Below are positions 12,001-47,212 of a stretch of DNA of 64,000 bases, piece by piece. How positions within the stretch are numbered: position 1 is the first letter of the stretch; each line of letters begins with the position of its first letter. This stretch comes from Acidobacteriota bacterium (GTDB taxonomy: Bacteria > Acidobacteriota > UBA890 > WLXD01). The position numbers and the translations under genes were made by a program. The stretch is taken from contig CBDFKD010000002.1 of the NCBI GenBank assembly GCA_965248695.1, forward strand, positions 2,432,001 to 2,496,000, written 5' to 3'. Below the pieces are notes generated by a model. It was not told the origin of the DNA and did not search any database. It worked only from the letters and a program-made list of their open reading frames with translations.

Positions 12001-12004
12001 CTGC

Positions 12005-24448: not shown

Positions 24449-24661
24449 CCGAAGACGGACGTGCGGCGGCGGCCTGGTCTCGGCTTCGAGGAGTCCTGAT
24501 CGCCCTCGCTCCGCCAGGCAAAGGCGGTCCCGCAGCGAATCCCTTGAGGAGCCCAACGATCAGTGGTTGCATCCACGCGTCCCTCTACTGACCAAGCCAA
24601 GAAAGTGACTCGACAAGGGTCATGCCGGAATCCCGGGAGGTAGACAGTGGTTGGAGGATCG

Positions 24662-26460
24662 ATGACTGAATCCAGGCCGCGGCTGTTGATCGCTTTGCTG
24701 GCGAGCCTGAGCATATCGGCTTGTCAGCCGTCAACGCAGGACGCGTCGCCAGGCGATGCTGGCAGCCCAGCCGATTTGGTGCTGCAGGGCGGCAAGTTCT
24801 TTACCGTCGACGAAGCCCAGGTTTGGGCTGAAGCCGTCGCGGTCAAGGACGGCAGGTTCGTCTACGTCGGCAACGACGTTGGTGCAGAGAGCTTCGTCGG
24901 TCCCGATACCGATCGCCATGACCTCGGCGGCAAGCTGACGATTCCCGGCCTGGTGGATTCCCATACGCACCCAGGTCTGATGGGGCGGGAGACGGCCGGG
25001 TACACCGCAGTCCCCGTGGGTGGTGGTCCCAGAGGAAGGCTGCCCGGGGGTGGGACCAAGGAGGAGATCTTCGCTGCGGTGGAGGCCTATGCCGAAGCCA
25101 ACCCGGACCTTGCCTGGATCGAGATGGGTAGCTGGTCCGGGGATCTGTACGGCGTCGCGGGCCCACACAAGAGAGATCTGGATCGCGTCGTACCCGATCG
25201 ACCGGTGATGTTAGGAAGCGTCCATAGCCTTTGGGTCAATTCCGTGGCGCTCGAGATGATGGGGGTCGACAGCAACACACCCGATCCGGTACCCGGTCTC
25301 TCATACTTCGTACGGGATGCGGATGGGGAGCCTACCGGCTGGATCAAGGAATGGGCCGCCTGGCCCTATGTGCAGCACCTTACTGACGTTGACCGGGAGG
25401 CCAACAAGGAGGGTATCGACACCTTCTTGGAGTACCTGTCAGGCCACGGCGTTACTACACTCTTGGACGCTGGCAACAACAGCTACCACGATCTCACGTA
25501 CTCGCTGCTTGCCGAGCTAGAGGCAGCCGGTCGCCTGCCGGTTCGCTACGAGGGCAGCGATCACATCTTCTTGCCCGATCAGGTGCCCGGTGCGATCGAT
25601 GAGCTACAGCGGCTGCACCGCACTTACGGCAGCGAGCGTCTGACGTTCAACACGATCAAGATTCACTTCGACGGCACGGACGAGATTCGTACCGGCGCGG
25701 TGCTCGAGCCGTTCAGCGATGACCCGGGCAACCGAGGCGCTACGCTCCTCGACACCGAGGAGTTGAGTGATTTCATCGTGCAGCTTCACGAAGCCCGGAT
25801 CGATTTACACCTGCACATCGTGGCCGACCGGGGCGTTCGCATCGCGCTGGATGCCGTAGAAGCGGCGCGGGGATCGGTCGACGGCGAGCTCTATCCGCGC
25901 GTTACGATCTGCCACCTCGACATCATCGATACGGTCGACTACCCGCGTTTCAAACAGCTGGGTGTCATTGCCAACTACACACCCCAATGGCACGGCCTGG
26001 GAGACAGACCGCCGTTACCCTTGGCGATCGCTTCGAGAGGATGTTGCTGGTGCAGCCGTTACTGGATGACGGTGCGTTGGTCACCTTCTCCAGCGACGTA
26101 ACATCGCTCGGGGGCATGGAGCGGGCCAACCCATATCTGGGAATGCAGATCGGCCACAACCGCCAATACCACGAACAGGGCGAGGCCGCGCCGATAAGGC
26201 TGCCGCTGAGCGAACGGCTGAACCTGGAGGATCTGATCAAGGGATACACCTTGAACGGCGCCTACCAGCTCCGTATGGAGGACCAGCTCGGCTCGATCGA
26301 GGTGGGCAAGCTCGCCGATCTGGTGGTGTTGGATCGCAACCTGTTCGAAATCGATCGCTACGAGATCCACGAGGTTCGACCCGAGGCGGTCATCATGGAA
26401 GGCGAGATCATCAGGGGGAGCTTGGACGGCAGCGCGGGCGCCCGTAGCTCAGCTGGATAG
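24662..26460 (+). pseudogene. Amidohydrolase 3 family lipoprotein, frameshifted paralog of 33929-35722
   Basis: 10-bp deletion near 26010 relative to the paralog; 3' end runs into tRNA half copy 2. Confidence 0.85.
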
Positions 26461-27666: not shown

Positions 27667-29889
27667 CTATTCGTCTATCCCGAAGGCCAATAGCACATTC
27701 CCCGGGCTATTACCGAAAATCGCGTACCCGGATCCCATGTACATCATCCCATCGACGATCGTTGGGGAGGTGGCACCAATCGCGCCGCCGAATGCCGGCA
27801 CTTCGTTAATGGCTTCGTAGGTTCGTTTCGTGGCGTATTCCCAGAGAATCCCGCCGTCCGCCTTTGAATATGCACGGAGTGTCCCTTGGGAAGAGCCGGT
27901 GATTACCGCACCGGGCACTGCGGTTGCCGCCGCCGTGTAACCCGAGGAGCAGGCGTTGAAACCCTCCAGGTCGCAGTCCTCCAGCCCCGGCAGCTCCGTG
28001 TACCAGACGCGCTCCCCCGTCGTCACCCGCAATGCCGCGACGGCTCCGGTCGCGTCCCGGTAGGTCAGCGGACGATAGAAGAGCTCGCCGTCGGACGCCC
28101 CGCCCCAACCCGCCGCGTTGGGAGCAAGCCGGTCGCCGGCCTGGGCTACCCAGAGGACTGCCCCGTTGTTGTCGGGATCCAAAGCGGTGATGCGGCCGCT
28201 CTCCTGTACGCCCAGCAGAACGCGGCGACCGTTCGGTAGGTCGAGCAGAATCGCCTGGTTGACGTCGTCGCCCGGGCCCTGAATGTAGCCAGGACAATTG
28301 ATCACACGCTCGGGACCGTGGCCGCAGCCACCTGAGTCTCGATCCGAGGCCGCAGGAAAGAGGTTGGTCATCCACAACCGTCGGCCGCTATCCATGTCGA
28401 GGGCCAGCATCGAGTTGCAGGCGCCGCCGTCGAAGGTCACGTTGCCGACACCGAAGTGCTCAGTGATGCCGCAGTTCCCGGTGGGCGCATAGATCGCGCG
28501 CCGTTTCTCGTCGATCGCGAGCGAGCTCCAGATGCCGGCGCCGGACGGTCCGAACAGCGGCGTGCCGGCCGAGTTGTTCTTGTCGAGTGGACGAGGCCGC
28601 TCTGGAAGTGCATACGTTTGCCAGACCTTCTCACCGTTCTTCACGTCGACCGCCACGACGTTGCCCTGGAACGTGCAACACTCGTACTCGAGATGGGTAC
28701 CTGGCTGTTCTTCCCACGACGCGACGGGCACATACAGGCGCTCGCCTGAGGAGTCGAGTCTCACGGCGGATGTGATCTTCGCCTGTGGGTGATCATCGGG
28801 GCGCATGGTCCACATCCCCTCGCCCGTCTCGGCGTTCACTCCGTACACGACCCCGCTCATGTCGCCAAAATACGCGCCATGGCGGACCCCCGGAACTCCA
28901 TCGACCGGGCCGATCTTGACCGCGCCCCGGACCGCCGTCTGCGCGCGGTACGACCAGTGAACGCAGCCGGTCTTGGCGTCGAGCGCATAGACGAAGAAGT
29001 TGTCGCTCGTAATGAACAGCGCACCGCCCACCACGCTGGGTTGCGACCAGTTGGCCACCGAGGCATCCGGGATCGCGAAAACCCACTTCAGCTTCAGGCG
29101 CGGGAGGTCCGCGGCGGTGATGCCGCCGACCGCCTCCGACGCGAACCGATGCACAGCGAGCTCGGGATCCCAACCGTTCCAACTGGGTTGGTCGTCCCAG
29201 TTGTCGAGGTTCAGGGGCCTGTCACACTGGTTCGGCATGGCCGACGCCTCGCGGTGGGCAACGCCGCCGAACGGCTTGCCGGTCACGAGCTCGATGGTGG
29301 CGCGCTTGTACTCCTCGTCGTCGAAGATCCGGAAGCGATCGCTCTCGTCATGTGCCGCGATCGGGCGGTGCAACACTGCCAGGAGCTCGTCGGGTTCCAT
29401 TTGCTGGATATCGAACCGTGACGGCATGCTGGCGGGAACGGTCCCTCCCGAAACGGGTCGACCGTCAGGCGAATTGTCGTGGCAGACCGCACACCCGTTT
29501 TCGAAGACACCGACCATCCTTGCCGGATAAACGGTGCGGTCGGCCGCGCTACCGAGAGGCTTGCCGGTCACGAGCTCTGCCATCGCCCGCAGCTCGTCGT
29601 CCGTGAACTCGGACGTGAACTCCACCATGGGCCCTTCCATCAGGGCGATGAGGACCTGCTCCGGTTCCATCTGTCGAAGCGCCGCCCGAGTGGGTGCCAG
29701 GATCTCGTCGCTCTGACTGTCATGACACTCGGCACAGACCGCTTCATACGTCGACACCATGCTGGCGGCGGTGGCCCTCGGTTCCGGCACATCTTGTGCC
29801 TGGACCGGCGCAGTAAGGAGCTGCGTCGTCAATGCGACTACAGCTGCAAACACCGTCACCGAGCTCATCATCAGGGCTCGTCTGAGCAT
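27667..29889 (-). CDS. Quinohemoprotein (PVA dehydrogenase-like PQQ propeller) with two cytochrome c motifs
   Basis: CAECH and CAVCH; LKLKWVF, ECCTFQG, GPSGAGIWS, GNVLLAF. Confidence 0.85.
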   Translation of the reverse strand: MLRRALMMSSVTVFAAVVALTTQLLTAPVQAQDVPEPRATAASMVSTYEAVCAECHDSQSDEILAPTRAALRQMEPEQVLIALMEGPMVEFTSEFTDDELRAMAELVTGKPLGSAADRTVYPARMVGVFENGCAVCHDNSPDGRPVSGGTVPASMPSRFDIQQMEPDELLAVLHRPIAAHDESDRFRIFDDEEYKRATIELVTGKPFGGVAHREASAMPNQCDRPLNLDNWDDQPSWNGWDPELAVHRFASEAVGGITAADLPRLKLKWVFAIPDASVANWSQPSVVGGALFITSDNFFVYALDAKTGCVHWSYRAQTAVRGAVKIGPVDGVPGVRHGAYFGDMSGVVYGVNAETGEGMWTMRPDDHPQAKITSAVRLDSSGERLYVPVASWEEQPGTHLEYECCTFQGNVVAVDVKNGEKVWQTYALPERPRPLDKNNSAGTPLFGPSGAGIWSSLAIDEKRRAIYAPTGNCGITEHFGVGNVTFDGGACNSMLALDMDSGRRLWMTNLFPAASDRDSGGCGHGPERVINCPGYIQGPGDDVNQAILLDLPNGRRVLLGVQESGRITALDPDNNGAVLWVAQAGDRLAPNAAGWGGASDGELFYRPLTYRDATGAVAALRVTTGERVWYTELPGLEDCDLEGFNACSSGYTAAATAVPGAVITGSSQGTLRAYSKADGGILWEYATKRTYEAINEVPAFGGAIGATSPTIVDGMMYMGSGYAIFGNSPGNVLLAFGIDE

Positions 29890-29915
29890 CGGATTCCTCC
29901 AGTTCGAGAGCCTGA

Positions 29916-29944
29916 AGCCTATCGCCAGAGCGTTCGAGGGTCCA
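29916..29944 (-). promoter_or_regulatory. Conserved inward sigma70-like promoter (TGGACC-N17-TAGGCT)
   Basis: Same boxes and 17-bp spacing at 33171-33199, 35961-35989 and 54918-54946. Confidence 0.65.
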
Positions 29945-30127
29945 CGGGGCGCAAGACCACCCGCTATCCGTCAGTCCACACATCGAAGATGCTCCCTACG
30001 AGAGAGCGGCGAGCTTAGCCGAGGGATGTGTGCTTCCGGCCATCCGGGGCGCGGGGAACCGATCCTGCGCCTGTGAACTGACGAATAGTGGCTATCGCAA
30101 TCCGCATTTCTGGAGATGCGCCGACTC

Positions 30128-30210
30128 TTGCTAAACTGCGGGCACAGTTTGGGCACAATCGGCCTCACAAGAAAACACCGTGCAGCTCCTAAGTGCCCAT
30201 GAATAAAGGG
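30128..30210 (+). repeat. Type A right arm (also at 33381-33462, 36172-36252, 41227-41308)
   Basis: TTGCTAAACTGCGGGCACAGTTTGGGCACAATC...TAAGTGCCCATGAA(T/C)AAAGG immediately before the tRNA half. Confidence 0.9.
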
Positions 30211-30249
30211 GCGCCCGTAGCTCAGCTGGATAGAGCAGCGGACTTCTAA
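30211..30249 (+). repeat. tRNA-Arg 5' half, copy 3
   Basis: 39-nt exact match. Confidence 0.97.
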
Positions 30250-30440
30250 ACCAACCGCGCGCAGTTGGTTCCAGTTGGCGCTGCTTGGCGCTCGTTGGCT
30301 GGCGTTGGTTTGGGTTGGTGCCGAATCAGCTCGGCTTTGGTTCTAATTGGTTCCAGTTGGTGCTGCTTGGTTCCCCGCGGGCACAATCGTGGGCACAATC
30401 CCCCGCACCCTCAGCGCACGTCGGGCACCAGCGGTGCCGA

Positions 30441-33137
30441 TCATTGCGAACCGCTGACAGGTATCCGGGCCTTGAGCTCCTCGACCCAGTGTTCCACGAA
30501 GATCATGGCGCCGGTCGACTGGCGCCTCGCGCTTCGCATGAGGAAGCGTTCGCCGTCCGGCGCGAGATCGAAGTGGGGCGCCCCGGCGTAGATAGCGTAG
30601 CCCTGGAGGCCGAACATCCCGGTCGGCGTGCGTGGATTGAAGGTCGGTTCCGTCTCGACCTCGGCGACCATCATCTGTTCGAGCTCCAGAAAAAACAGGC
30701 GCCGGCCATCAGGCGACCACACCGGAGCGACGCCGGAGTTCGCAGAGACCTGCCACTTCCCGGCGTCCGTCTCCGGGAACGGTTGGACGTAGATCTCTGA
30801 GCGGCCAGACTCGTTCGACTGATAAGCGATCCACCGGGCGTCCGGGGACAGCGCCGGTCCCTGCTCGGTGAAGTCGCTCGCGAGAAGCATCTCCACCGTC
30901 CGATCGCCCTCGACCGTAAGCACGCCGATGTCTCCGGGTGTCTGATCGAACACCAGCCGGCCGTCGGCCGACCAGTCCCAGGGGCGCGGTCGATCCGGAC
31001 TCTCCAGAAGCCGCTCAACCTCACCGGTTCCGTCCGCCGCCTTCCAGAACAGCCCGCCGCCGTCGCGATCCGACCGAAATACCACGCGCGAGCTGTCGGG
31101 GGTCCACAGCGGGGTGTCGTCTTGCGCCTCATCGAACGTCAGTCGGAGGAAGGGGCCCTGATCGAGGCGCCAGGTCCATACGTCCGTGTTGCCCTCCTCA
31201 GCAATTGCCATGGCCACTCTGCTTCCGTCCGGTGAGACGCGCACGTCCTGATAGTTTCCCCTGGGAAGACCTGTCGGTGTAGCGGCGACCATGTTCCCGT
31301 CGATGATCTGGTCATGGGTGTTGTCGACCCACACGAGCGAGAACCCTTCCGCCGGCCCGGTCGCTCCCGGGAGATAGATCAGCGCGCCGTTTCGCGCCAC
31401 GCTGAACTGGGAGGTCGCGTTCCCGACCGCCTGCCGGACGCCCTCGACGAGGGGCACCGGTCCCCCAAGGACCTGACGCGTCGCGAGGTCGAACGCGACG
31501 CCGAACACCACGCCGTCCGACGCATAAACGAGATGTCCCGTCTCCACGAAACGGGCGTCTCGTCCGCGGTCGATCAGTACCGCCCGCTCCCCAGTGGCGA
31601 GCGACTGTACGACGATCTGTGCCTCGTCCCATACGCCGGCGCCAGCGTCTGCGGGCCTGAGCGTATACAGCACCCATTCGCCGCCGGGCAGCATCTGAGG
31701 CCCATGTGCGGCTTCGCCTGCCGCCACCGTGATGACGGCCTCAGGCGTGCCGCCGGTGCCGGGCACCCTCCAGATGCCGTCCTGTCCCTGGCCATAGAGA
31801 ATCATGTCGTCGGCGCCCCAACTCGCACCAGACGGGACACTCGCATCGGCGAGCATCACCGGCGCTCCGCCGGTCGTAGCGACCTTGCGCAGTTGCCCGC
31901 CCGCGTGGAAGCCAATCCACTGGCTATCGGGAGAGAAGAACGGCGCTCGAGGCCCCCCGTCAGCGCCCATCAGCGGCGCAGCTGTGATCTCATCGAGTGA
32001 CCGAAGCAACAGCCCGTCACCGGTGACGTAGACGATCGAACGGCCGTCCGGTGACAGGGCGACGACATGCTGCCCCATGCGTGCGAACGATTCCGTCGCG
32101 CGCAGCGGGACTTCGAAACGTGTCACTGCGGGTGCGTCAGGCTGCATCAGACGCCAGACCGTAGCGCCGGTGATCGCCGCCACTAACAAGACCACGAGGA
32201 GGGTGGGCACCGGTCGCTGCCAGAGCCGCAACGGCGGTGCGCCGGAGGGTGCCGACGCCGCCGTGGGGCTGGTCGTCGCGAACGCACCCGCCAGCGCCAG
32301 GCGCACATCCCCCATATCACGGACACGTTCTCTGGCGTCTCGCTGCAAACACCGCCTCAGGTAGGTATCGAGAGCCGGGGGAAGCCCCTCGGGCAACGCC
32401 TCCCAGTCGGGATCCCGTTCGATGACCCGAGCCAACGTCTGTGAGATGTCATCCCCGGGAAAGGGCTTCGTGCCGGTCAGCATCTCGTACAGCACTGCGC
32501 CAAACGCCCAGATGTCGGCCCGCTTGTCCACCGGCTGGCCCCTGGCTTGCTCCGGGCTCATGTAGGCGGCTGTGCCCATGATGACTCCGGTGCGCGTCGC
32601 CTCCATCATGGTCGGTGATTGGCTCAGGTCCCGCGAGACATCGGACGACGAGCCGTCCGCCTCGTAGGACTTGGCAAGCCCGAAGTCGAGGACCTTGGCT
32701 CTCCCCTGCGGGGTAACGATGACGTTGGCGGGCTTCAGGTCGCGGTGGATAACGCCGTTCTCGTGCGCGGCTTCCAATGCCTCGGCAATCTGGCGGGCAA
32801 CGTCGAGCGCTTCATCGACTTCAAAACGCCCCGAGCGAGAGATCCGCTCTGCCAAGGTCTCACCCTCAACCAGCTCCATGGCGATGTAGCGTTGATCGCC
32901 CTCATCCTCCAGCCCGTAAATGGCAGCGATGTTGGTGTGGTTCAGAGAGGCGAGGAGCTTTGCCTCACGCTCGAAGCGGGCAAGACGGTCGGCGTCGGTG
33001 GCGAAGTCCTCTGGAAGCACCTTGATCGCGACATCCCGGTCGAGCTTGGTATCCCGCGCTCGATACACCTCTCCCATGCCGCCCGCGCCGAGCGGGGAGA
33101 GGATCTCGTAATGCCCTAGTTGGGTCCCACGTTCCAT
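30441..33137 (-). CDS. Hanks-type Ser/Thr protein kinase with TM segment and TolB/PD40 beta-propeller
   Basis: LGAGGMGEVY, VAIK, HRDLKPAN, DFG, YMSPE; C-terminal WSPDG repeats. Confidence 0.95.
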   Translation of the reverse strand: MERGTQLGHYEILSPLGAGGMGEVYRARDTKLDRDVAIKVLPEDFATDADRLARFEREAKLLASLNHTNIAAIYGLEDEGDQRYIAMELVEGETLAERISRSGRFEVDEALDVARQIAEALEAAHENGVIHRDLKPANVIVTPQGRAKVLDFGLAKSYEADGSSSDVSRDLSQSPTMMEATRTGVIMGTAAYMSPEQARGQPVDKRADIWAFGAVLYEMLTGTKPFPGDDISQTLARVIERDPDWEALPEGLPPALDTYLRRCLQRDARERVRDMGDVRLALAGAFATTSPTAASAPSGAPPLRLWQRPVPTLLVVLLVAAITGATVWRLMQPDAPAVTRFEVPLRATESFARMGQHVVALSPDGRSIVYVTGDGLLLRSLDEITAAPLMGADGGPRAPFFSPDSQWIGFHAGGQLRKVATTGGAPVMLADASVPSGASWGADDMILYGQGQDGIWRVPGTGGTPEAVITVAAGEAAHGPQMLPGGEWVLYTLRPADAGAGVWDEAQIVVQSLATGERAVLIDRGRDARFVETGHLVYASDGVVFGVAFDLATRQVLGGPVPLVEGVRQAVGNATSQFSVARNGALIYLPGATGPAEGFSLVWVDNTHDQIIDGNMVAATPTGLPRGNYQDVRVSPDGSRVAMAIAEEGNTDVWTWRLDQGPFLRLTFDEAQDDTPLWTPDSSRVVFRSDRDGGGLFWKAADGTGEVERLLESPDRPRPWDWSADGRLVFDQTPGDIGVLTVEGDRTVEMLLASDFTEQGPALSPDARWIAYQSNESGRSEIYVQPFPETDAGKWQVSANSGVAPVWSPDGRRLFFLELEQMMVAEVETEPTFNPRTPTGMFGLQGYAIYAGAPHFDLAPDGERFLMRSARRQSTGAMIFVEHWVEELKARIPVSGSQ

Positions 33138-33170
33138 TCGCGCGCCACGGTGGAGTAGGTTGGCGAGGTG

Positions 33171-33199
33171 AGCGTATCGCCCGTTCGTGCGACGGTCCA
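33171..33199 (-). promoter_or_regulatory. Putative kinase promoter TGGACC-N17-TACGCT
   Basis: Conserved across cassettes; -10 box lies 33 nt upstream of the ATG. Confidence 0.65.
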
Positions 33200-33462
33200 C
33201 GGTGCGCGAAACTACCCTCAATAGGTCAGTCCACACATCGGAGTTGCCCGTACACGCGAGCGGCGAGCTCGGCCGGATGATGTGCCCTTCCGGCTATCCG
33301 AGGCGCGGAGAGCCGGTTCCGCGCCTGTGAACTGACGACGGTACTAGCGCCATCGGCTTTTCTAGAGACGCGCCGGCTTCTTGCTAAACTGCGGGCACAG
33401 TTTGGGCACAATCGGCCTCACAAGATCCACCGTGCCGCTCGTAAGTGCCCATGAACAAAGGG

Positions 33463-33501
33463 GCGCCCGTAGCTCAGCTGGATAGAGCAGCGGACTTCTA
33501 A
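33463..33501 (+). repeat. tRNA-Arg 5' half, copy 4
   Basis: 39-nt exact match. Confidence 0.97.
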
Positions 33502-33696
33502 ACCAAACGGTCGCAGTTGGGGCTGGTTGGCGCTGCTTGGGGCTCGTTGGCTGGCGCTGGTTCCTGTTGGTAGCGAATCAGCCCGCTCTTGGTTCTAGTT
33601 GGTTCCAGTTGGTGCTGCTTGGTTCCCCGCGGGCACAATCGTGGGCACAGTTTGAACCGCTGAGTACGTGGAGGACTCCGCAACTCGCTGACGCGG

Positions 33697-33735
33697 CTAC
33701 GGATCCGTCGGCACGAGCCGCTTCAGCTCGTCGAA
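33697..33735 (-). pseudogene. Kinase-TolB C-terminal remnant (FDELKRLVPTDP*)
   Basis: Manual translation; same position and strand as the intact kinase end in cassette 3. Confidence 0.8.
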
Positions 33736-33928
33736 GTGCCAGGGCAAGGGGTCAGGCGTTCCCGGATCCACGGCGGAGAGCGTCTGGGAGTTGTCCCGCA
33801 GCGAATCCCTTGAGGAGCCCAACGATCAGTGGTTGTATCCAGGCGTCCCTCTACTGACCAAGCCAAGAACCTAACTCGACCAGGGTCATCTTGGACATCC
33901 CGGGAGGTAGACAGTGGTTGGAGGATCG

Positions 33929-35722
33929 ATGACGGAAACCAGGCCCCAGCTGTGGATCCTTTTGCTGGCGAGCCTGAGCATATCGGCTTGTCAGTCGTCC
34001 ACGCAGGACGCGTCGCCAGGCGATGCTGCCAGCCCTGCCGATTTGGTGCTGCAGGGCGGAAAGTTCTTTACCGTCGACGAAGCCCAAGTTTGGGCTGAAG
34101 CCGTCGCCATCAAGGACGGCAGGTTCGTGTACGTCGGCGACAACACTAGCGTACAGGGCTTCGTTGGCCCCGATACCGTTCGCCATGACCTCGGCGGCAA
34201 GCTGACAATTCCCGGTCTAGTGGATTCCCATACACACCCAGGTAGGATGGGGCGGGGCGGGGGCGTCTCGGTCCCCGTGGGTGGTGGTCCCAGAGGGAGG
34301 CTGCCCAGCGGCGGGAACAAGGAGGAGATCTTCGCTGCGGTGGAGGCATATGCCGAAGCCAACCCGGACCTTGCCTGGATCGAGATGGGTAGCTGGTCCG
34401 GGGATCTGTACGGCATCGCGGGCCCACATAGGAGAGATTTGGATCGCGTGGTACCGGATCGACCGGTGATGTTAGGAAGCGTCCATAGCGTTTGGGTCAA
34501 TTCCGTGGCGCTCGAGATGATGGGGGTCGACAGCAATACACCCGATCCGGTACCCGGTCTCTCATTCTTCGTACGGGATGCCGATGGGGAGCCTACCGGC
34601 TGGATCAAGGAATTTGCCACCTGGCCCTATGCGCAGCACCTTGCTGACGTTGACCCGGAGTCCCACAAGGAGGGTATCGTCACCTTCTTGGAGTACCTGT
34701 CAGGCCACGGCGTTACTTCACTCTTGGACGCTGGTAACCAAAACTACGACGATCTCGCGTACTCGCTGCTGGCTGAGCTAGAGGCGGCCGGTCGTCTGCC
34801 GGTTCGCCTCGAGGGCAGCTATCACATCTACTTGCCCGATCGGGTGCCCGATGCAATCGATGAGCTACAGCGGCTGCGCCGCACCTACGGCGGCGAACGT
34901 CTACGGTTCAACACCATCAAGATCCACTTCGACGGCACCAATGAGATTCGTACCGGCGCGGTGCTCGAGCCGTACAGCGATGACCCGGGCAACCGGGGCA
35001 CGACCCTGCTCGACACCGGACAGCTGCGTGACTTCATCGTGCAGCTTCACGAAGCCAGGATCGATCTGCACATGCACATCGTGGGCGACCGGGGCGTACG
35101 CATCGCCCTGGATGCGGTGGAAGCAGCGCGCAGGTCGGTCGACGGCGAGCTCTATCCACGCGTCACCCTGTGCCACCTGGACATCATCGATACGGCTGAC
35201 TACCCGCGTTTCAAACAGCTGGGTGTCATTGCCAACTACACGCCCCAGTGGCACGGCCTGGGAGACCGACTGCCGTTGACCGCCGGTACCCTTGGCCCCC
35301 GCTTCGAAAGGATGTTGCTGGTGCAGCCGTTACTGGATGACGGCGCGGTCGTGACCTTCTCCAGCGACGTGACATCGCTCGGGGCCATGGAGCGGGCCAA
35401 CCCTTATCTGGGGATGCAGATCGGCCACAACCGCCAATACCATCAACAAGGTGAGGCGGCGCCGATAAGGCTGCCGATGACCGAACGCCTGGACCTGGAG
35501 GATCTAGTCAAGGGATATACGTTGAACGGCGCCTACCAGCTCCGCATGGACGACCAGCTCGGCTCCATCGAGGTAGGCAAGCTCGCCGACCTGGTCGTGC
35601 TCGATCGCAACCTGTTCGAAATCGATCGGTACGAGATCCACGAGGTTCGACCCGAAGCGGTCATCATGGAAGGCGAGATCATCAGGGGGAGCTTAGACAG
35701 CGGCGCGGAGCTGAGGCCATAG
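33929..35722 (+). CDS. Amidohydrolase 3 family (YtcJ-like) lipoprotein
   Basis: Lipobox ISAC; PGLVDSHTH; KIHFDG; GSIEVGKLADLVVLD. Confidence 0.92.
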   Translation: MTETRPQLWILLLASLSISACQSSTQDASPGDAASPADLVLQGGKFFTVDEAQVWAEAVAIKDGRFVYVGDNTSVQGFVGPDTVRHDLGGKLTIPGLVDSHTHPGRMGRGGGVSVPVGGGPRGRLPSGGNKEEIFAAVEAYAEANPDLAWIEMGSWSGDLYGIAGPHRRDLDRVVPDRPVMLGSVHSVWVNSVALEMMGVDSNTPDPVPGLSFFVRDADGEPTGWIKEFATWPYAQHLADVDPESHKEGIVTFLEYLSGHGVTSLLDAGNQNYDDLAYSLLAELEAAGRLPVRLEGSYHIYLPDRVPDAIDELQRLRRTYGGERLRFNTIKIHFDGTNEIRTGAVLEPYSDDPGNRGTTLLDTGQLRDFIVQLHEARIDLHMHIVGDRGVRIALDAVEAARRSVDGELYPRVTLCHLDIIDTADYPRFKQLGVIANYTPQWHGLGDRLPLTAGTLGPRFERMLLVQPLLDDGAVVTFSSDVTSLGAMERANPYLGMQIGHNRQYHQQGEAAPIRLPMTERLDLEDLVKGYTLNGAYQLRMDDQLGSIEVGKLADLVVLDRNLFEIDRYEIHEVRPEAVIMEGEIIRGSLDSGAELRP

Positions 35723-35858
35723 CGGCAGCTGCGGCTTCGTGCGCACCTCGGCAGATGGCGGCTTCGATGCAAGCACGGGACATCGAGGCCATCACAGTGA
35801 ACCGCTTGCCGCACGGCTACGCTGGCGGCGCCAACCGCCTTTACGACCCCGCGTGGGA

Positions 35859-35927
35859 CTCTCCCATGCCGCCAACGCCGAGCTATCCGGTGATCTCGTA
35901 GGGGCCTAGTTTGGTGCCGGGTCCCAT
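35859..35927 (-). pseudogene. Kinase N-terminal remnant (MGPGTKLGPYEITG*LGVGGMGE)
   Basis: Manual translation; aligns with the kinase start MERGTQLGHYEILSPLGAGGMGE; preceded by the same promoter. Confidence 0.88.
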
Positions 35928-36252
35928 GGCGCTACCAGAGGGAGGTAGGTGGGCGCGTGAAGCGTATCGTCAGCCCATGCGAAGGTCCACGGGGCGCGAA
36001 ATCACCCGCTATACGTCAGTCCACACATCGGGGATGCTCCGTCGGAGAGAGCATCGGACGTAACCAAGCGATGTTTCCTTTCCGCTATCCGAGGCGCGGA
36101 GAATCGGTTCTGCGCCTGTGAGCCGACGACGGTGCTAGCGCCATCGGTGTTTCCAGAGAGGCGCTGACTTCTTGCTACACTTCGGGCACAGTTTGGGCAC
36201 AATCACGGTCACAGAATCCACCCTGCGGCTCGTAAGTGCCCATGAATAAAGG

Positions 36253-36291
36253 GCGCCCGTAGCTCAGCTGGATAGAGCAGCGGACTTCTAA
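36253..36291 (+). repeat. tRNA-Arg 5' half, copy 5
   Basis: 39-nt exact match. Confidence 0.97.
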
Positions 36292-36631
36292 ACCAAACGG
36301 TCGCAGTTGGTGCTGGTTGGCGCTGCTTGGTGCTCGTTGGCTGGCGTTGGTTCCTGTTGATAGCGAATCAGCCCGCTCTTGGTTCTAGTTGGCTCCAGTT
36401 GGTGCTCGTTGGTTCCCCGCGGGCACAATCGTGGGCACAGCGGCGGAGCACAGTGTCGTCTCTGGCAGGTCTAGGCGACATCTTGATCACGCGCGAATTC
36501 GGCGCACCTCCGCCGAGAACGCGCACGCCCAGCCCATCGCCAGGCCAATCGGGCGAAGCTCAGGACAATGAGACCTCCGCCGAAGCAGCGTGCGCCGGGC
36601 GCCTGATTCGCGTACGTAGTCGCACCACCGC

Positions 36632-38656
36632 TCACCGCAGTGCAAGCGCGACGAACTCAGCGGCGTGCTCGACGCCGCCGACCGCGACGACTATGAACTG
36701 TTTCTCCTCGTGCATGTACGTGATCGGCGCACCGGTAGTGCCAGCGGGGAGCGCCGTCTCCCACAGAATGTCGCCAGTCTCCTTGTCGTAGGCGCGGAAC
36801 TTGTCGCCGCCGGACGTCGGAATCGCATACAGGGGCATCCCCTCCGGGACGCGCCTGGCCCAGTTGTGGTGCGACATCACCGGGTCGCCCTCGCCGACGA
36901 ACAGGAGCGTCTTCGTCAGCAACGGCGCTGCGCGCCCCGGCAGCCCGAGCCTCGGCAGGTTCAGGTGAGCGATCGCGGGATGGTCCCGCGGTCCCTCGCC
37001 GTTGGGGACCATCCAATCGATCTCGCCCTGGTTCATGTCATATGCGGTGATCCGCCCGTATGGCGGCTTGATGAGCGGCAGCCCTTGCGGACCATTGATG
37101 TAGCGTCGCGCGCCGCGAACGTAGCGCAGGTCCGCTGTGTCCGGGGGGCCTGCGAGGATGTCCGCGGCGAATGGTCCGGTTATGGACTGGACGTACAGGC
37201 GACCGGTGTCGGGGTCGAAGGCGGCGCTCTGCCAGTCGCCGCCTCCCTGTCCGCCCGGAAGCTGGATCGTGCCGAGGGTGCTGTTCGGGTCGTCGCTGCG
37301 AATCGAGGGCGGCGTGAACATCGGCCCGATGACGTAGCGATTCACGATCCGCTCTGCCTTCGCACGCAGCTCGGGCGTGAAGTCGATCAGATCGTCAATC
37401 GACACCCCCTGGCGGTCGAACGGCGGTGGCTTGGTCGGAAACGGCTGGGTCGGCGCGGTGCGTTCGCCCGGCGTGTTCGATTTCGGTACCGGGCGCTCTT
37501 CGATGGGCCAGATCGATTCTCCGGTCACCCTGTCGAACACGAACAGGAACGCGTTCTTGGTGACCTGGATGGCTGTCTTGCGACGCCGTCCGTCCACCGT
37601 GAGGTCGGCCAATATGGGCGCCGACGGCAGATCGAAGTTCCATAGAGGATGATGGACGGTCTGGAAATGCCAGATGCGCTCACCGGTCTCCGCGTCCACG
37701 CATACCAAGCTCTGGCCGTAGAGATTGTCCCCGAGACGATGGCCGCCGTACATGTCGTTGGTCGGCGAGCTGAGCGGCAGGTACACGTACCCCAACTCTT
37801 CGTCGACCGACATGTATGCCCAGAGGTTAGTGTGGCCGCTGTAACGCCAGCTCTCGTCCTCCCAGGTGTCGGTGCCGAACTCGCCGGCCTGCGGAACCAC
37901 ATGGAACGTCCAGCGCAGCGCGCCCGTCCGCACGTCGAACGCCCGCACGTCGCCGCGAGGTTGCGCCATGGTCGGGGGGCCGTCCGACATCGATTGACCC
38001 ACGATGACGACCTCCCCTGTGACCAGCGGAACGCCGGTCCACCAGTACGGTGAGCGCGGCGGGCCAAGGCCCTCGGCCAGATCGACCATGCCGGCATTGC
38101 CGAAGTCCGGATACACACGACCGGTCTTGGCATTGAGGGCGATCAAATGCTCGCCCCCGACGGCGAGAATGCGCGCATCCACGCCGTCGGTCCAATAGGC
38201 GACGCCGCGGGCGCTGTCTCCCCGTGATTGCCGTGGATCCTCCCCTGTGTCCTGCAGCCAGATGGTTCGTCCGCTCCCGGGGTCGAACGCCTCGACCAAC
38301 CCCACGCCGTTCGACGCGTACAGGACACCGTCGACCATCAACGGCGTCGATCTGAAGTTGTTGGAGAACTGCAAGCCGGGGTTCGCGTCGATGATCGCGG
38401 TGGCGACGGCCGGGCGCCGCCAGACGATGCGCAAACGGTCGACGTTGTCCCTGTCGATCTGGTCGAGCGGTGCGTACTTCGTACTGGCGGGGTCGCCGTT
38501 GTAGCTCCGCCACTCGCCGGCGGCCGCGCCTGTCTGGGCCGCGCCTGACACCCCGATGGCGCCCAGCAGACAAGCACACGCGGTCGACAGCGCCCGTCGT
38601 TTACCGAACCGTTTGCGATCCCGCGAACACGAAGCTCCCATCCGCATACCCCTCAC
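36632..38656 (-). CDS. PQQ-dependent quinoprotein (paralog of 20321-22291)
   Basis: YAPLDQIDRDNV, GDNLYGQSLV, WHFQTVHH, IWPIEERPVP. Confidence 0.9.
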   Translation of the reverse strand: MRGMRMGASCSRDRKRFGKRRALSTACACLLGAIGVSGAAQTGAAAGEWRSYNGDPASTKYAPLDQIDRDNVDRLRIVWRRPAVATAIIDANPGLQFSNNFRSTPLMVDGVLYASNGVGLVEAFDPGSGRTIWLQDTGEDPRQSRGDSARGVAYWTDGVDARILAVGGEHLIALNAKTGRVYPDFGNAGMVDLAEGLGPPRSPYWWTGVPLVTGEVVIVGQSMSDGPPTMAQPRGDVRAFDVRTGALRWTFHVVPQAGEFGTDTWEDESWRYSGHTNLWAYMSVDEELGYVYLPLSSPTNDMYGGHRLGDNLYGQSLVCVDAETGERIWHFQTVHHPLWNFDLPSAPILADLTVDGRRRKTAIQVTKNAFLFVFDRVTGESIWPIEERPVPKSNTPGERTAPTQPFPTKPPPFDRQGVSIDDLIDFTPELRAKAERIVNRYVIGPMFTPPSIRSDDPNSTLGTIQLPGGQGGGDWQSAAFDPDTGRLYVQSITGPFAADILAGPPDTADLRYVRGARRYINGPQGLPLIKPPYGRITAYDMNQGEIDWMVPNGEGPRDHPAIAHLNLPRLGLPGRAAPLLTKTLLFVGEGDPVMSHHNWARRVPEGMPLYAIPTSGGDKFRAYDKETGDILWETALPAGTTGAPITYMHEEKQFIVVAVGGVEHAAEFVALALR

Positions 38657-38662
38657 GGTTGC

Positions 38663-40930
38663 CTAGTCCTCCGCCACGGCGACGACGTGGTGTCGCGTTC
38701 GAAAGATCAACATGTCGTCCACGGCCGCCGGGGTAGCCATGATGATCTCGCCCATCGCGTTGACGGCCAAGCGCTCGAACTCCCTGCCGGCCTGAATCAC
38801 GACTACGTCGCCGTCCTCGCTCGAGAAGTACAGGCGGCCGTCGGCCGCTATCGGCGACGCCGAGTAGTGGCTGCCGCGGCTGAGGCGGGCCTGGTAGAGA
38901 CGGCTCCCGGTGGCGGCATCGTAGGCGGCGAGGATGCCGGTGTCCGAGCTCACATACAGGACGTCCCCGTAGAGAATCGGGGTCGGAATGAACGCACCAC
39001 CACGGTGGGTGCTCCACGCCACGTAGTCGTTCGAGACCGCGTCATCCGTCGGGGTGATGTCGCCGCCCCCACCGGGGCGGACGGCGTAGATCGGCTGCAC
39101 GCTACCGCCGCTGCCGCTCGTCAAGTAGATCAATCCGTGGCCGCTGATCGGTGCCGGAATGGCGTAGATCGAGTGCTTGGCCAGCCTCCATAGCTCCTCT
39201 CCGGTCTGCGGGTCGTAGCCGCGCGCGAAGTTCGGGGCCAGGGTGACGAGCTCGGTGCGTGGTGGACCCTCGTAGATCAACGGTGTCGCCCACGAAGGCG
39301 CCTCGTCGCGGGCGGTGCGCCAGACTTCGGCGCCGGTCTCGATATCGAACGCGGCGATGAACGAGTCGGCGAGCAGGTCCACCTGCAGAATCACGAGCCG
39401 ATCGTGAATGATTGGCGAGGCAGCCGTGCCCCACTCATAACTCGGATCTACGACATACCCCGACCCGAGCGTACCGAGGTCGCGCGACCACAGCAGGGTC
39501 CCCGCGGTGTCGTAGCAGTAGAGCCCCTCCGAGCCGAACCAAACCACGACGTGCGTCCCGTCGGTCACCGGCGTGGCATTGGCCTGAGACTGGCTCACGT
39601 GGCGCGCCGTCCGCGGGATCCCTTCGCGGGCCTCGCGTTCCCAGAGGACCTCGCCGCTCTCCCGATCGAGCGCATAGACACGCCAAGAGTGTGGCTCCCG
39701 ATCTGTCGTCGACCGGTTGTCGGCGTCGAGGAAGGAGTAGGCGTCAAAGCCATGACGAAAGGCCGTCGGGTCGTCGGTCAGGGCTACCGCTGTCGTCACG
39801 AAGATACGGCTGTCCCAGACGATCGGACTCGAATGACCTAGCCCCGGGATCGAAGTCTTCCAAGCGACGTTGATCGAGCCTTCGAGGTCCCAGGTCGTTG
39901 GCGGTACGGCGTCGAGAGCAACCCCAGAGCCCCGGACACCCCGGAACGATGGCCAGCGCGCCCCGGTTGCGGCCACCGGGGCGGCGACCGGGCGATCAAA
40001 CGCCGGCTGTAGTGTTCGTGCCGGCTTCGCTCTCGGCACCGGATCGGCGGTCCGCACGAACACCTCCGTGATGCCCTCTTCCCGGAGGCTTATCTTGCGC
40101 GGCGTCGGCAACCCGACCGGTCTGCTGACGAGCTTGGTGCGGTCGAACGATTTGAAGCTCAGCAGGTCGAGCGGCAGTAAGCCGACGCTCGGCTGTCCGG
40201 CCCGCTCGAGCAGCAGCTGGTCCGAATGGACGCTCGGCGCCAGGGTCAGCGAGCTCCCGGCGGCGTTTCGATAGATCCCCACCCAGAGGTCGCGCCGTTC
40301 CGCCGACGACAGACGATCGATCGGTCGAGGCTCGATCGCGCCCGCGGCCCGCAACGTTTCGGCGAGATCCGCCAGATCGTAGCTAACCGCGGCCTCGTAG
40401 GCGACGTTGAGTAACGACGGGTCGACCCCGCCCCTGGCGACGATCCTCTTCACCACGTCGAACCGGCCACTCCATATCAGATCCAGAAGTGACTCGCCGG
40501 CCGCGCCGGCACCCGCCTCGAGAAGCAGCTCGAGCATCGTTACCCGGGTCTCTTCTGCGGCTCCGGTACCTCCCATCCCGGCATGTCGCAACGGTGTCCG
40601 GCCCCACTCGAGATCCTTGGTGTCCGGATCGGCTCCGTTCTCGAGCAGCAACCGGACGATCTCGAGATGGCCTCGTTCGGCAGCAATATAGAGCGCCGTG
40701 GCGCCGCGGTCATTCGCAACCTCGACGTCCACACCATGGGCGAGCAGTGCGCCCACCGTGGCGGCATCGCCGTGGCCGGCCGCTTCTAGCAGGCGGTGAT
40801 CGCGGGACGGTGCCTGCAGCGTGGGGCCTGTGACGAGCACCGCGCAAAGTCCGGCACACAGAAACCACGCGTCAGATGCTGGCCCTTGCGCGTTCGCCAT
40901 CGGCCGCCGGACTGGGGAGAAGGTGCTCAT
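38663..40930 (-). CDS. Ankyrin-repeat + PQQ-like beta-propeller protein
   Basis: GATALYIAAERGHLEIVRLLLENGAD; WPSFRG, GLGHSSPIVW, SASPIAADGRLY; start codon uncertain. Confidence 0.85.
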   Translation of the reverse strand: MSTFSPVRRPMANAQGPASDAWFLCAGLCAVLVTGPTLQAPSRDHRLLEAAGHGDAATVGALLAHGVDVEVANDRGATALYIAAERGHLEIVRLLLENGADPDTKDLEWGRTPLRHAGMGGTGAAEETRVTMLELLLEAGAGAAGESLLDLIWSGRFDVVKRIVARGGVDPSLLNVAYEAAVSYDLADLAETLRAAGAIEPRPIDRLSSAERRDLWVGIYRNAAGSSLTLAPSVHSDQLLLERAGQPSVGLLPLDLLSFKSFDRTKLVSRPVGLPTPRKISLREEGITEVFVRTADPVPRAKPARTLQPAFDRPVAAPVAATGARWPSFRGVRGSGVALDAVPPTTWDLEGSINVAWKTSIPGLGHSSPIVWDSRIFVTTAVALTDDPTAFRHGFDAYSFLDADNRSTTDREPHSWRVYALDRESGEVLWEREAREGIPRTARHVSQSQANATPVTDGTHVVVWFGSEGLYCYDTAGTLLWSRDLGTLGSGYVVDPSYEWGTAASPIIHDRLVILQVDLLADSFIAAFDIETGAEVWRTARDEAPSWATPLIYEGPPRTELVTLAPNFARGYDPQTGEELWRLAKHSIYAIPAPISGHGLIYLTSGSGGSVQPIYAVRPGGGGDITPTDDAVSNDYVAWSTHRGGAFIPTPILYGDVLYVSSDTGILAAYDAATGSRLYQARLSRGSHYSASPIAADGRLYFSSEDGDVVVIQAGREFERLAVNAMGEIIMATPAAVDDMLIFRTRHHVVAVAED

Positions 40931-41308
40931 GGCCTCAATAGTTCGTCTGATTAAGGACCTCGTCTGGCAGGGGCCCTCATGGCGCGGTGCCAACGTATGG
41001 GCCCGCGGCGATAGCCTAGCGCCGCTGCGGACAGGGTCCAAGAGCCACAACGGTGTGCGGCATGGACGCCTGTCTCGAGCCGCTGGGCTGGCGGTCATCC
41101 GAGGCAAGCCCGACGCCGCGTTCCAGGAGCGGCAGATCAGCAACTACGACTATCGCCGTGATCTCCTTGATCCACGTCAGTCGTTACGAACGGCAGCTCC
41201 GCTGGCCGTCGGACCGAGGCGACTTGTTGCTAAACTGCGGGCACAGCTCGGGCACAATCGGCCTCACAAAATCCACCGTGCGGCCCGTAAGTGCCCATGA
41301 ACAAAGGG

Positions 41309-41347
41309 GCGCCCGTAGCTCAGCTGGATAGAGCAGCGGACTTCTAA
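41309..41347 (+). repeat. tRNA-Arg 5' half, copy 6 (type A/type B hybrid junction)
   Basis: 39-nt exact match; type A arm on the left, type B arm on the right. Confidence 0.97.
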
Positions 41348-41485
41348 GTCACTTCACTCGACTGGGCGGGGCTTGTTTCTACTTGTATCTAGTTGCATCC
41401 AATCGACTTGTGCCCGAACCGAAGTGACTGCGAGTTGTATGTTCTTGTATCTAGTTGGACGTAAATTGGCAGGAATTTGGCAAGG
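41348..41485 (+). repeat. Type B left arm (also at 44576-44712)
   Basis: 10-bp-phased TTG(T) runs, then TTGGCAGGAATTTGGCA. Confidence 0.9.
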
Positions 41486-41531
41486 TCTGAGCTGAGTACG
41501 TAGCGTGGCTCGCGAGACTCCGCTGACGCCG

Positions 41532-41570
41532 CTACGGGTCCGTCGGCACGAGCCGCTGCTCGTCGAACCA
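41532..41570 (-). pseudogene. Kinase-TolB C-terminal remnant (WFDEQRLVPTDP*)
   Basis: 3-bp deletion relative to the copy at 44759. Confidence 0.75.
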
Positions 41571-41607
41571 GGTGGTGGCGAGGTTGTGGTCCAGGGCACC
41601 CGCCCGC

Positions 41608-44265: not shown

Positions 44266-44340
44266 CCCCATCCTTTGAGGTCCCTGGCTACGGGACCCGT
44301 AGCCGATGCGGTCGCTTTCTAACGCGACGCCAGGCGAACC

Positions 44341-44536
44341 AGGACCCGTGACCATCCCACAAAACTGAACCCAGCGCGCGACCGCGCCCCCACCGTTGCG
44401 TTTCGCGTTCTTGGCACTCAGGCTGCCGGATATGATGAGCGTGCGGTTTGGCAGGGAATAGGCAAAGTCGCGTTAGGGCTCGATGGCGATCGGGTCGGCC
44501 TTGCCGTAAGTCATTGGTTCTATTGAACTTCTATGT
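44341..44536 (+). repeat. Type B right end (identical by eye to ~46886-47081)
   Basis: Contains TTTGGCAGGGAATAGGCA and TAAGTCATTGGTT before the tRNA sequence. Confidence 0.9.
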
Positions 44537-44575
44537 GCGCCCGTAGCTCAGCTGGATAGAGCAGCGGACTTCTAA
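44537..44575 (+). repeat. tRNA-Arg 5' half, copy 7
   Basis: 39-nt exact match. Confidence 0.97.
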
Positions 44576-44758
44576 GTCATTTCACTCGACTGTGCGCGTC
44601 TTGTTTCTACTTGTATCTAGTTGCATCCAGTCGACTTGTGCCCGAAGACGACTGACTCCCAGTTGTATGTACTTGTATCTAGTTGGACGTGAATTGGCAG
44701 GAATTTGGCAGGGCGGGCAGATCGAGGGTTGAGCTAGTTTTCGGGGTGCAGCCGGGCG

Positions 44759-44815
44759 CTACGGGTCCGTCGGTACGAGCCGCTTCAGCTCGTCGAACCA
44801 GTTGGTGACCAAGTT
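44759..44815 (-). pseudogene. Kinase-TolB C-terminal remnant (NLVTNWFDELKRLVPTDP*)
   Basis: Manual translation. Confidence 0.82.
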
Positions 44816-44837
44816 GTCGTCCAGGTCACCCGCCCGC

Positions 44838-46907: not shown

Positions 46908-47081
46908 AACTGAACCCAGCGCGCGACCGCGCCCCCACCGTTGCGTTTCGCGTTCTTGGCACTCAGGCTGCCGGATATGATGAGCGTGCGGTTTGGCAGG
47001 GAATAGGCAAAGTCGCGTTAGGGCTCGATGGCGATCGGGTCGGCCTTGCCGTAAGTCATTGGTTCTATTGAACTTCTATGT

Positions 47082-47155: not shown

Positions 47156-47212
47156 CCTTTGTGTTCACAACTTGCGAGGATTCAGGGCCGTCGAAGCCTC
47201 TCTGAACGATCC

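Follow-up and report, generated by a model that had tools for sequence, protein, structure and literature searches.

The stretch of DNA analyzed here (the window) comprises 64,000 nucleotides (nt) of the 5.9-Mb genome of an Acidobacteriota bacterium (GTDB lineage UBA890; WLXD01), namely positions 2432001 to 2496000 of contig CBDFKD010000002.1, and carries an array of seven tandem cassettes that ends at an intact tRNA-Arg(TCT) gene. The cassettes are 2.5 to 6.4 kb long, mostly contain one or two genes, lack integrase genes, and are bounded by extra copies of the 5' half of the tRNA gene (h1 to h7). This work deals with cassette 4 (33463-36291, between h4 and h5), in which the last and the first codons of a serine/threonine kinase-PD40 gene flank an unrelated amidohydrolase gene. 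This cassette is probably a decayed member of the array that once resembled cassette 3, with the interior of its kinase gene replaced through illegitimate recombination. Bare coordinates below are window positions, and the prefix C2: marks contig coordinates (the window being G000:C2:2432001-2496000). G000 stands for the genome under study, G001 to G004 for four genomes of the same genus, and G020 for a genome from another family of the same order.

Reading inward from the left tRNA half, cassette 4 consists of an arm, the 3' flank and the last codons of a kinase gene on the minus strand, a short filler, the amidohydrolase module on the plus strand, a fragment of a small open reading frame (ORF), and then the first codons of a kinase on the minus strand with its leader, a distal upstream segment, and the right arm (Table 1). 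Apart from the arms after h1, h2, h3, and h5, G000 has no full-length copies of the left arm (33502-33650); the arm is also present in G001, G003, and G020. The kinase 3' flank is partly common to C2:1510374, 5709002, and 3595250. Translation of 33697-33780 on the minus strand ends with PLPWHFDELKRLVPTDP and a stop codon, and the 40-nt tail is 97.5% identical to those at C2:1522473 (a frameshifted kinase, K4), 4436858, and 4679552 (both orphan); upstream of it, cassette 4 has no kinase or PD40 homology. The 10-mer CCAGTTGGTG, considered as a possible link between the tail and the left-arm repeats, has 33 copies in the genome, mostly elsewhere, and was taken as a coincidence.

At the opposite end of the cassette, translation of 35790-35927 on the minus strand gives MGPGTKLGPYEITG*LGVGGMGE (the asterisk denotes a stop codon), after which the kinase frame is lost. 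This remnant carries the glycine-rich loop (LGxGGMGEV) right behind a short conserved leader peptide and matches residues 1 to 23 of the intact paralog K3 (C2:1515188) with 82.6% identity (19/23; tblastn E value of 2.8e-7); its nucleotide sequence is 90% identical to that of the N terminus at C2:1505605. From the remnant onward, 584 nt align without a break with cassette 3 (33069-33650 versus 35859-36440, 83% identity), through the leader, the right arm, the tRNA half, and the next left arm. The Pkinase and PD40 domains are both absent from cassette 4, where a tblastn search with K3 reaches only residues 1 to 44, and the kinase gene of this cassette is a relic rather than a working member of the kinase-PD40 family.

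These data bear out the preliminary description of the locus, made from the letters alone, as far as the kinase termini on both sides of the amidohydrolase, the intact kinase-TolB gene in cassette 3, and the C-terminal remnants in cassettes 6 and 7 are concerned; the family assignment of both remnants also holds, as the N-terminal one matches K3 and the tail is a true C terminus of the family. That description also assigned an upstream segment to cassettes 2 and 5 and called it a promoter. The segment is indeed shared by cassette 2 (29910-30116, 77% identity), whereas what cassette 5 has in common is limited to the right arm (41221-41308), and the term promoter is just a label: a sigma-70 and terminator scan of 33400-36300 returned no promoter-like and one terminator-like site, at or below the mean for shuffled sequences. 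The distal segment had no Rfam match, and in the consensus fold of its four copies only 1 of 34 base pairs covaries, which leaves a structured RNA unsupported.

Table 1. Features of cassette 4, of the surrounding array, and of related loci
Feature	Position	Strand	Remarks
tRNA-Arg 5' half h4	33463-33501	+	Bounds cassette 4 on the left; identical to tRNA positions 1-39
Type-A left arm, cassette 4	33502-33650		GTTGG repeats and GGGCACAATCGTGGGCACAG; 80-96% identical to arms after h1, h2, h3, h5
PD40-kinase 3' untranslated flank remnant	33651-33696	-	CTGAGTACGT...CTCCGC...CTGACGC common to cassette 6
Orphan kinase C-terminal tail, cassette 4	33697-33741	-	(P)W(H)FDELKRLVPTDP, then stop; 12 clear codons and stop (33697-33735)
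Filler	33742-33792		~51-57 nt; no other match in G000; present in G003
Amidohydrolase module	33793-35731	+	1.94 kb; gene and ~120 nt of its own upstream sequence
Amidohydrolase gene	33914-35722	+	Intact, 602 aa; full-length Amidohydro_3 (Pfam) match, E = 1.2e-69
Small-ORF family fragment	35721-35858	+	~Codons 22-66 of a 73-codon ORF; directly after amidohydrolase stop
Kinase N-terminal remnant	35859-35927	-	23 codons; in-frame TAG at codon 15
Proximal kinase leader	35928-35993	-	75-80% matches precede the starts of 8 or more kinase genes in G000
Distal upstream segment	35994-36160		Confined to cassettes 2, 3, 4, positions 11992-12115, and a single site beyond the window
Type-A right arm, cassette 4	36160-36252		GGGCACAGTTTGGGCACAATC; 85-86% identical to arms before h3, h4, h6
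tRNA-Arg 5' half h5	36253-36291	+	Right boundary of cassette 4
tRNA-Arg 5'-half copies, starts	20044, 26438, 30211, 33463, 36253, 41309, 44537	+	
Intact tRNA-Arg(TCT)	47082-47157	+	Closes the array; sole tRNA found by ARAGORN in the window
Type-A left arms	After h1-h5		~190 nt; GTTGG repeats, then GGGCACAATCGTGGGCACAG
Type-A right arms	Before h3-h6		~93 nt; include GGGCACAGTTTGGGCACAATC
Type-B arms	Cassettes 6 and 7		Differ from type A
Cassette 1 cargo (Pfam)			PQQ dehydrogenase, AMP-ligase-like protein, enoyl-CoA hydratase, frameshifted amidohydrolase
Cassette 2 cargo (Pfam)			PQQ/cytochrome c protein
Cassette 3 cargo (Pfam)	30441-33137	-	Intact kinase-PD40 gene (Pkinase and PD40); divergent tail HWVEELKARIPVSGSQ, then stop
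Cassette 4 cargo (Pfam)			Amidohydrolase
Cassette 5 cargo (Pfam)			PQQ dehydrogenase and ankyrin-PQQ protein
Cassettes 6 and 7 cargo (Pfam)			Calx-beta proteins
Orphan tail, cassette 6	41532-41570	-	Within type-B arms; 3-nt deletion
Orphan tail, cassette 7	44759-44851	-	Frame open for 31 codons, offset from Calx-beta ORF ending at 44838
12-codon orphan tail	13705-13743	-	In insertion sequence-flanked unit; distal upstream segment (11992-12115) across NHL-repeat gene
5.9-kb segment	G000 C2:93284-99218; G003 L023 14368-20000 and L027 1-505		

The array itself is most likely the product of successive integrations followed by decay, judging by its seven integrase-less tandem cassettes taken together with a complete element in G002. 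The first 39 to 42 nt of the tRNA gene, which reach the 3' side of the anticodon loop, are present in seven extra copies on the same strand, and the 25-nt core of this half has 8 copies in the window, which are the only 8 in the genome (chance expectation, 0). The arms of the cassettes fall into two types in G000, and a third type is seen in G002; cassette 1 has no right arm, so that its amidohydrolase gene abuts h2 directly. The same arms and halves are found at tRNA-Arg in G001 to G004 and in G020, with different cargo. In G002, the complete element extends from a tRNA half to a gene for a 363-amino-acid (aa) tyrosine recombinase of the PF00589 family, whose stop codon is separated from the intact tRNA-Arg by 31 nt. 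Beside this integrase, the 5' half differs from the displaced halves by one base. G004 retains a shortened copy of the integrase (76.7% identical to that of G002) beside its outermost half. G000 encodes no homolog of the G002 integrase (best E value, 0.015), and none of its 13 PF00589 matches is in the window. An Rfam scan of 29800-47300 at E values of up to 1 returned only the tRNA and two chance-level matches. In four of 24 sequencing runs (X21, X1, X2, and X3; short contigs), the joints listed have sides of 20 to 38 nt, consistent with cross-matches between paralogs.

Several further observations concern the array and the G002 element. A lone 37-nt copy of the half (97% identity), the only copy elsewhere in the genome, lies at C2:2394505-2394541, ~57 kb upstream of the array, and may be an older relic. 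Cassettes 6 and 7 have right arms (44341-44538 and 46886-47083) that match perfectly over 198 nt, against only ~68% identity in their gene bodies, which suggests recent conversion or a very recent integration at the tRNA-proximal end. The G002 element (L016 11586-19248) also carries a gene with a Pycsar effector-like transmembrane domain (PF18967) and two transposase genes; judging by the domain, antiphage defense may be part of its cargo.

Comparison with G003 dates the rearrangement in cassette 4. G003 is colinear with 32865-35810 (86% identity) through the kinase N terminus, the half, the left arm, the tail, the filler, the amidohydrolase, and the small-ORF piece. Both G003 and G001 have a 5.9-kb segment within the small-ORF piece, between 90-nt direct repeats; it is 99.25% identical to C2:93586-99218 of G000, beside a tRNA-Leu array, and looks like a recently moved element that has no integrase of its own. 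G000 either never had this segment or lost it between the repeats. To the right of the segment, G003 reads ...GGGAC/TCTCCC, the last 6 nt being the first of the kinase junction, followed by the end of an insertion sequence (IS). Because these nucleotides are kept, the small-ORF/kinase junction of G003 is that of G000; the two junctions of cassette 4 are common to both genomes and are therefore older than their split. In the G003 copy, the tail has lost its stop codon and suffered a 1-nt deletion, with an identity about that of its flanks (93%). Since this copy decays like its surroundings, the tail relic of cassette 4 is not under selection.

The dating bears on the possibility that cassette 4 arose by fusion of two cassettes, with its tail and its N terminus coming from neighboring kinase genes and a deletion having removed a right arm, a half, a left arm, and most of both genes. 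Such fusions do happen here, as in cassette 1, which has no right arm and where the amidohydrolase gene meets h2, and the two relics of cassette 4 cannot be assigned to a single gene. However, the interior of cassette 4 is one contiguous amidohydrolase module with native flanks, it contains no arm or tRNA relic, and both of its junctions already existed in G003. A fusion would, moreover, still require a replacement event of its own for the tail, the amidohydrolase not being a kinase. We therefore regard a fusion as quite unlikely. A candidate tRNA-half relic at 35712-35731, which would have made the cassette a fusion, was rejected, as this gene end, ...GAG(C/A)TGAGGCCATAG, is also present in the amidohydrolase paralogs at C2:4079298 and 2897809, far from any tRNA-Arg halves.

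The amidohydrolase module of cassette 4 is 89.5% identical to the copy in cassette 1 (24527-26455) and has a native end, ...MRP/LRP and stop, as do the paralogs at C2:4079298 and 2897809. Cassette 1 was considered as the donor and rejected, because its copy is frameshifted and lacks the native 3' end, the last codons having been lost to h2. The 138-nt small-ORF fragment that follows the gene is 97% identical to C2:93096-93233, beside the tRNA-Leu array; the junction between the two is common to G003, and the paralog at C2:2897809 shares ~25 nt of the fragment. Together with its upstream region of ~105 nt (33793-33903), the module recurs at C2:4077376, 5627633, and 3593211 with a near-constant left boundary in unrelated contexts, and one module copy lies ~150 nt from a tRNA-Leu fragment. 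The copies in cassette 1 and at C2:4077376 have no adjoining kinase relics.

The tail motif is a true C terminus of the kinase-PD40 family: NWF(E/D)ELKRLVPT is found near the stop codon in 103 of 120 public homologs of K3, which, where named, are annotated as serine/threonine kinases or Tol components and come mostly from Acidobacteria. Because several tail-bearing public homologs have no kinase domain recognized by Pfam (PD40 only), the tail alone cannot separate kinase-PD40 proteins from PD40-only ones. A six-frame search of G000 for this motif recovered 21 tails, to which the copy in cassette 6 adds a 22nd. Eight of them end reading frames of 299 to 1,072 codons. The other 14 are orphan, in frames of only 12 to 98 codons (12, 17, 20, 25, 31, 37, 41, 42, 51, 54, 91, 93, and 98) with no PD40 or kinase homology attached, although the one at C2:5709002 is probably the end of a frameshifted kinase located immediately upstream. 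Orphan N termini account for 5 of the 35 N-terminal matches in G000. The mixture of intact and orphan copies extends to G004, where 8 of 15 tails in six regions have open frames of fewer than 130 codons. The orphan tails are not really more uniform than those of the long ORFs (mean pairwise identities of 0.91 and 0.89, respectively).

Orphan tails are found near tRNAs more often than expected. Eight of the 14 have a tRNA gene or fragment at a distance of no more than 5 kb; without the three of the array, the count is 5 of 11 versus an expected 8.3% (binomial p = 0.0012). Among the long tail-bearing ORFs, only one of eight, that of cassette 3, is as close to a tRNA. The tail lies 35 to 47 nt past the left arm in cassettes 4, 6, and 7 and in G001 (beside an ortholog of the cassette 2 gene), G002, and G003. 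The layout of a tRNA piece, an arm of ~200 to 250 nt, and a tail pointing at the tRNA piece is also seen at a tRNA-Phe fragment and in G004, where the tail is ~250 nt past the end of an integrase-arm-tRNA fragment. In a kinase cluster at C2:1505-1523 kb, free of arms and tRNAs, a kinase domain, two foreign genes, and an orphan tail are found, as are a leader and 67 kinase codons followed by a PQQ (pyrroloquinoline quinone)/cytochrome c gene (C2:1510605) that is 85% identical to the cassette 2 gene.

Two other relics of the family merit description. An orphan kinase N terminus at C2:2630940-2631001 is located directly downstream of a gene for a 781-aa kinase (C2:2631009-2633354). At the equivalent position, G003 has an intact K3-like kinase, 95% identical to that at C2:1515182-1517874, and the N terminus in G000 is a second relic whose intact ancestor can be named. 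Within the window, the region 10741-15283 has two inverted 1,260-nt IS copies that are 100% identical (transposase with rve and HTH_21 domains) and enclose a low-GC NHL-repeat gene, a copy of the distal upstream segment, and the 12-codon orphan tail. The right-hand IS copy splits an aminotransferase gene (13867-14023, resuming at 15283), and the genome contains ~50 copies of this IS.

The ~50-nt tail has dyad symmetry (ACGAGC-7 nt-GCTCGT inside GGTTCG...CGGACC) and could be a target for integration in the manner of a tRNA stem-loop, in which case elements inserting at the 3' ends of PD40-kinase genes would have left the orphan tails behind as duplicated attachment (att) sites. Most copies fold with this hairpin, several orphans are sharply bounded on both sides of the block, the tails cluster in direct orientation, G002 and G004 have dozens of copies with 91 to 100% identity, and the G004 tail past the integrase-arm-tRNA fragment would fit such a role as well. 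The upstream boundaries vary, however, and only 1 of the 22 tails in G000 has one of the 13 PF00589 matches at a distance of 10 kb or less (counted by eye). A tail that simply comes first within the next older element accounts better for the geometry, decay is seen in the G003 copy, and the motif is the ordinary C terminus of proteins across the phylum. An att site function is very improbable on these grounds.

A different use of the termini would be as recombination handles. The conserved 5' end (leader and ~25 codons) and 3' end (~15 codons and flank) could provide homology anchors by which enclosed or adjoining DNA is moved from one kinase locus or cassette to another, either by homologous recombination or by an illegitimate event that homology facilitates, in line with a proposal for Rhs and type VI secretion system (T6SS) orphan arrays; a model of this kind is described in the accessible part of PMC5361080. 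The termini are in fact the only parts conserved at the DNA level (86 to 98% identity over 40 to 72 nt) among paralogs that are 35 to 47% identical as proteins. Orthologous kinases lie in different contexts in G000 and G003, the context changing right at the start codon, and the G003 ortholog of the C2:2631009 kinase has a cassette-type upstream region. The PQQ/cytochrome c genes follow a kinase leader in cassette 2 and a 67-codon N terminus at C2:1510605, and in G001 such a gene precedes a tail. The near-universal shortness of the relics and the FDEL form of the motif in most orphan tails (see below) fit this model as well without showing anchors. Nevertheless, at every locus examined, including those with PQQ/cytochrome c and amidohydrolase copies, no cargo has identical junctions at two loci; the anchors would be very short (45 to 135 nt), the amidohydrolase copies without adjoining relics would have done without them, and the orphan tail decays in G003. 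If the termini did act as anchors, they would constitute a new gene-capture route, a platform built on a dispensable and highly paralogous host gene with the FDEL hairpin tail as the mark of its proliferating form, through which an enclosed gene could be copied into more than 20 kinase loci and into tRNA-island cassettes throughout the genus. We consider this unlikely.

The reading that we favor, and hold to be probable, is patchwork decay in a fossil array rather than a dedicated gene-capture chassis. Small integrative elements would have entered tRNA-Arg(TCT) one after another, each newcomer supplying a fresh 5' half and displacing the older half upstream. The ancestor of cassette 4 would have resembled cassette 3 in having a left arm, a minus-strand kinase-PD40 gene ending ~45 nt from that arm, a leader, and a right arm; the relics in cassette 4 have the same strand, the same order, and the same distances from the arms as the termini of the intact gene in cassette 3. 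Illegitimate (non-site-specific) recombination would then have exchanged ~2.6 kb of kinase coding sequence for ~2.1 kb of foreign DNA, namely the filler of 51 to 57 nt and, inverted relative to the kinase, the amidohydrolase module together with the flank that natively follows it, with the outermost kinase codons persisting as pseudogene relics. Both termini would thus come from a single gene, and PD40-kinase genes would have been frequent, dispensable passengers beside the arms that were overwritten repeatedly within the genus, in dead elements as well as in kinase clusters. A site-specific or programmed exchange is rejected, because the breakpoints vary, the cargo is found in either orientation, and the relic decays: N-terminal relics range from 0 to 67 codons (23 and 67 measured), and cargo is co-oriented with the kinase in cassettes 6 and 7 and in G001 but inverted in cassette 4 and in the unit at 11992-13745.

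The preliminary description had gone further in proposing a mobile kinase cassette whose interior is repeatedly replaced, serving both gene capture and kinase expansion. A kinase cassette with a replaced interior is still the simplest account of cassette 4, but a dedicated or site-specific swap found no support, and neither did a dedicated capture chassis, given that the junctions vary in every case, the amidohydrolase is inverted, and the arm-free cluster has the same relics. Kinase expansion by this route has behind it the orthologous kinases at different loci in G000 and G003 and nothing else. The expected association of relics with arms and tRNA pieces was confirmed for the orphan tails by their enrichment near tRNAs, while the relics of the arm-free cluster depart from it and intact tail-bearing kinase genes show no such enrichment. 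Microhomology at the breakpoints amounts to at most 1 or 2 nt shared at the right junction (by eye).

Several observations weigh against replacement by random illegitimate recombination within one kinase gene. Nothing links the tail and the N terminus of cassette 4 to the same gene, and both resemble the K1-K4 group of kinases rather than the kinase of cassette 3. The remnants are very short in nearly all cases, unlike what random breakpoints should produce; part of this is ascertainment, as only the termini are conserved enough to be recognized. The FDEL variant of the tail motif is found in 13 of the 14 orphan tails versus 2 of the 8 long ORFs, and D occupies this position in 1 of 102 typeable public homologs (Fisher p = 0.008 for the conservative count of 12/14). 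The D codon completes a 6-bp hairpin stem, and the bias may point to a single proliferating lineage or to selection acting on this hairpin. The four copies of the amidohydrolase module, in four different contexts, start within ~4 to 7 nt of each other, which suggests that the module may be mobile as a discrete unit. Finally, the only integrase-bearing element found, that of G002, has no kinase, so that the status of the kinase as a regular passenger rests on relics.

Among known systems, the array can be compared with cis-mobilizable elements (CIMEs), which, in the accretion model for ICESt1 and ICESt3 as presented in the accessible part of PMC5704250, have no integration genes but keep attL and attR. 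Cassette 4, bounded by 39-nt tRNA 5' halves (33463 and 36253), appears similar in having lost an integrase and kept att-like repeats. The array differs in repeating the 5' half of the tRNA gene rather than its 3' end, in having seven units of 2.5 to 6.4 kb in a row, mostly with one or two genes, and in belonging to a genome that has no cognate integrase. The tycheposons of Prochlorococcus are tRNA-targeting tyrosine-recombinase elements whose newer integrations push older ones inward, forming islands with scattered degenerate remnants, partial tRNAs, and modular cargo, according to the accessible text of bioRxiv 10.1101/2020.12.28.424599. The array shares the accretion at a tRNA site, the remnants, the partial tRNAs, and the modular cargo with the islands described in that text. 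It belongs to another phylum (the named public kinase homologs are labeled Acidobacteria or Acidobacteriota) and shows no replication module, and a recurrent arm-side relic of one passenger family is not among the features given for tycheposon islands in that text.

Strings of orphan gene ends are also typical of Rhs, contact-dependent inhibition (CDI), and T6SS effector-immunity arrays, whose orphan 3' ends have been attributed to one homologous anchor and one illegitimate junction, as far as the accessible parts of PMC5361080 and PMC3240628 go. There, as here, the conserved part of a paralog stays and the variable part is displaced. In the systems covered by those texts, however, the part that stays as the anchor is the 5' core, and what comes in is a new variant of a gene of that type, whereas here unrelated metabolic genes lie between relics of both ends, and no module is joined through a conserved anchor at several loci, the junctions varying at every locus examined. 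Integron arrays resemble this one in their mostly single-gene units, diverse cargo, and repeated recombination-site sequences between units, but the boundaries here are visibly tRNA halves and arm repeats rather than attC, there is no integron integrase by the array (no PF00589 match in the window), and several cassettes have upstream regions of their own.

The locus provides a base-pair view of the rebuilding of a genomic island once its mobile elements are dead, with att sites and arms persisting while one passenger family is repeatedly overwritten and amidohydrolase, PQQ dehydrogenase, and Calx-beta genes take its place. The recurring kinase relics offer a marker for tracing such replacement events across the genus. 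The array is also an unusual case of accretion at a tRNA site, with seven integrase-less units and a repeated tRNA segment that comes from the 5' end of the gene instead of its 3' end.

Two further repeat structures were noted in G000. A second tandem array, at tRNA-Leu(CAA) (C2:89822-92989), has a 55-nt 3' tRNA part repeated three times, AT-rich arms, and small integrase-less units, one of them with a beta-lactamase-fold gene. In addition, a ~280-nt repeat that looks like a MITE (miniature inverted-repeat transposable element) is present in ~27 to 29 copies with 88 to 94% identity (e.g., C2:266650, 410599, and 930345; L016 570-850), and its first 41 nt are miscalled by ARAGORN within a 98-nt "tRNA-Pro."

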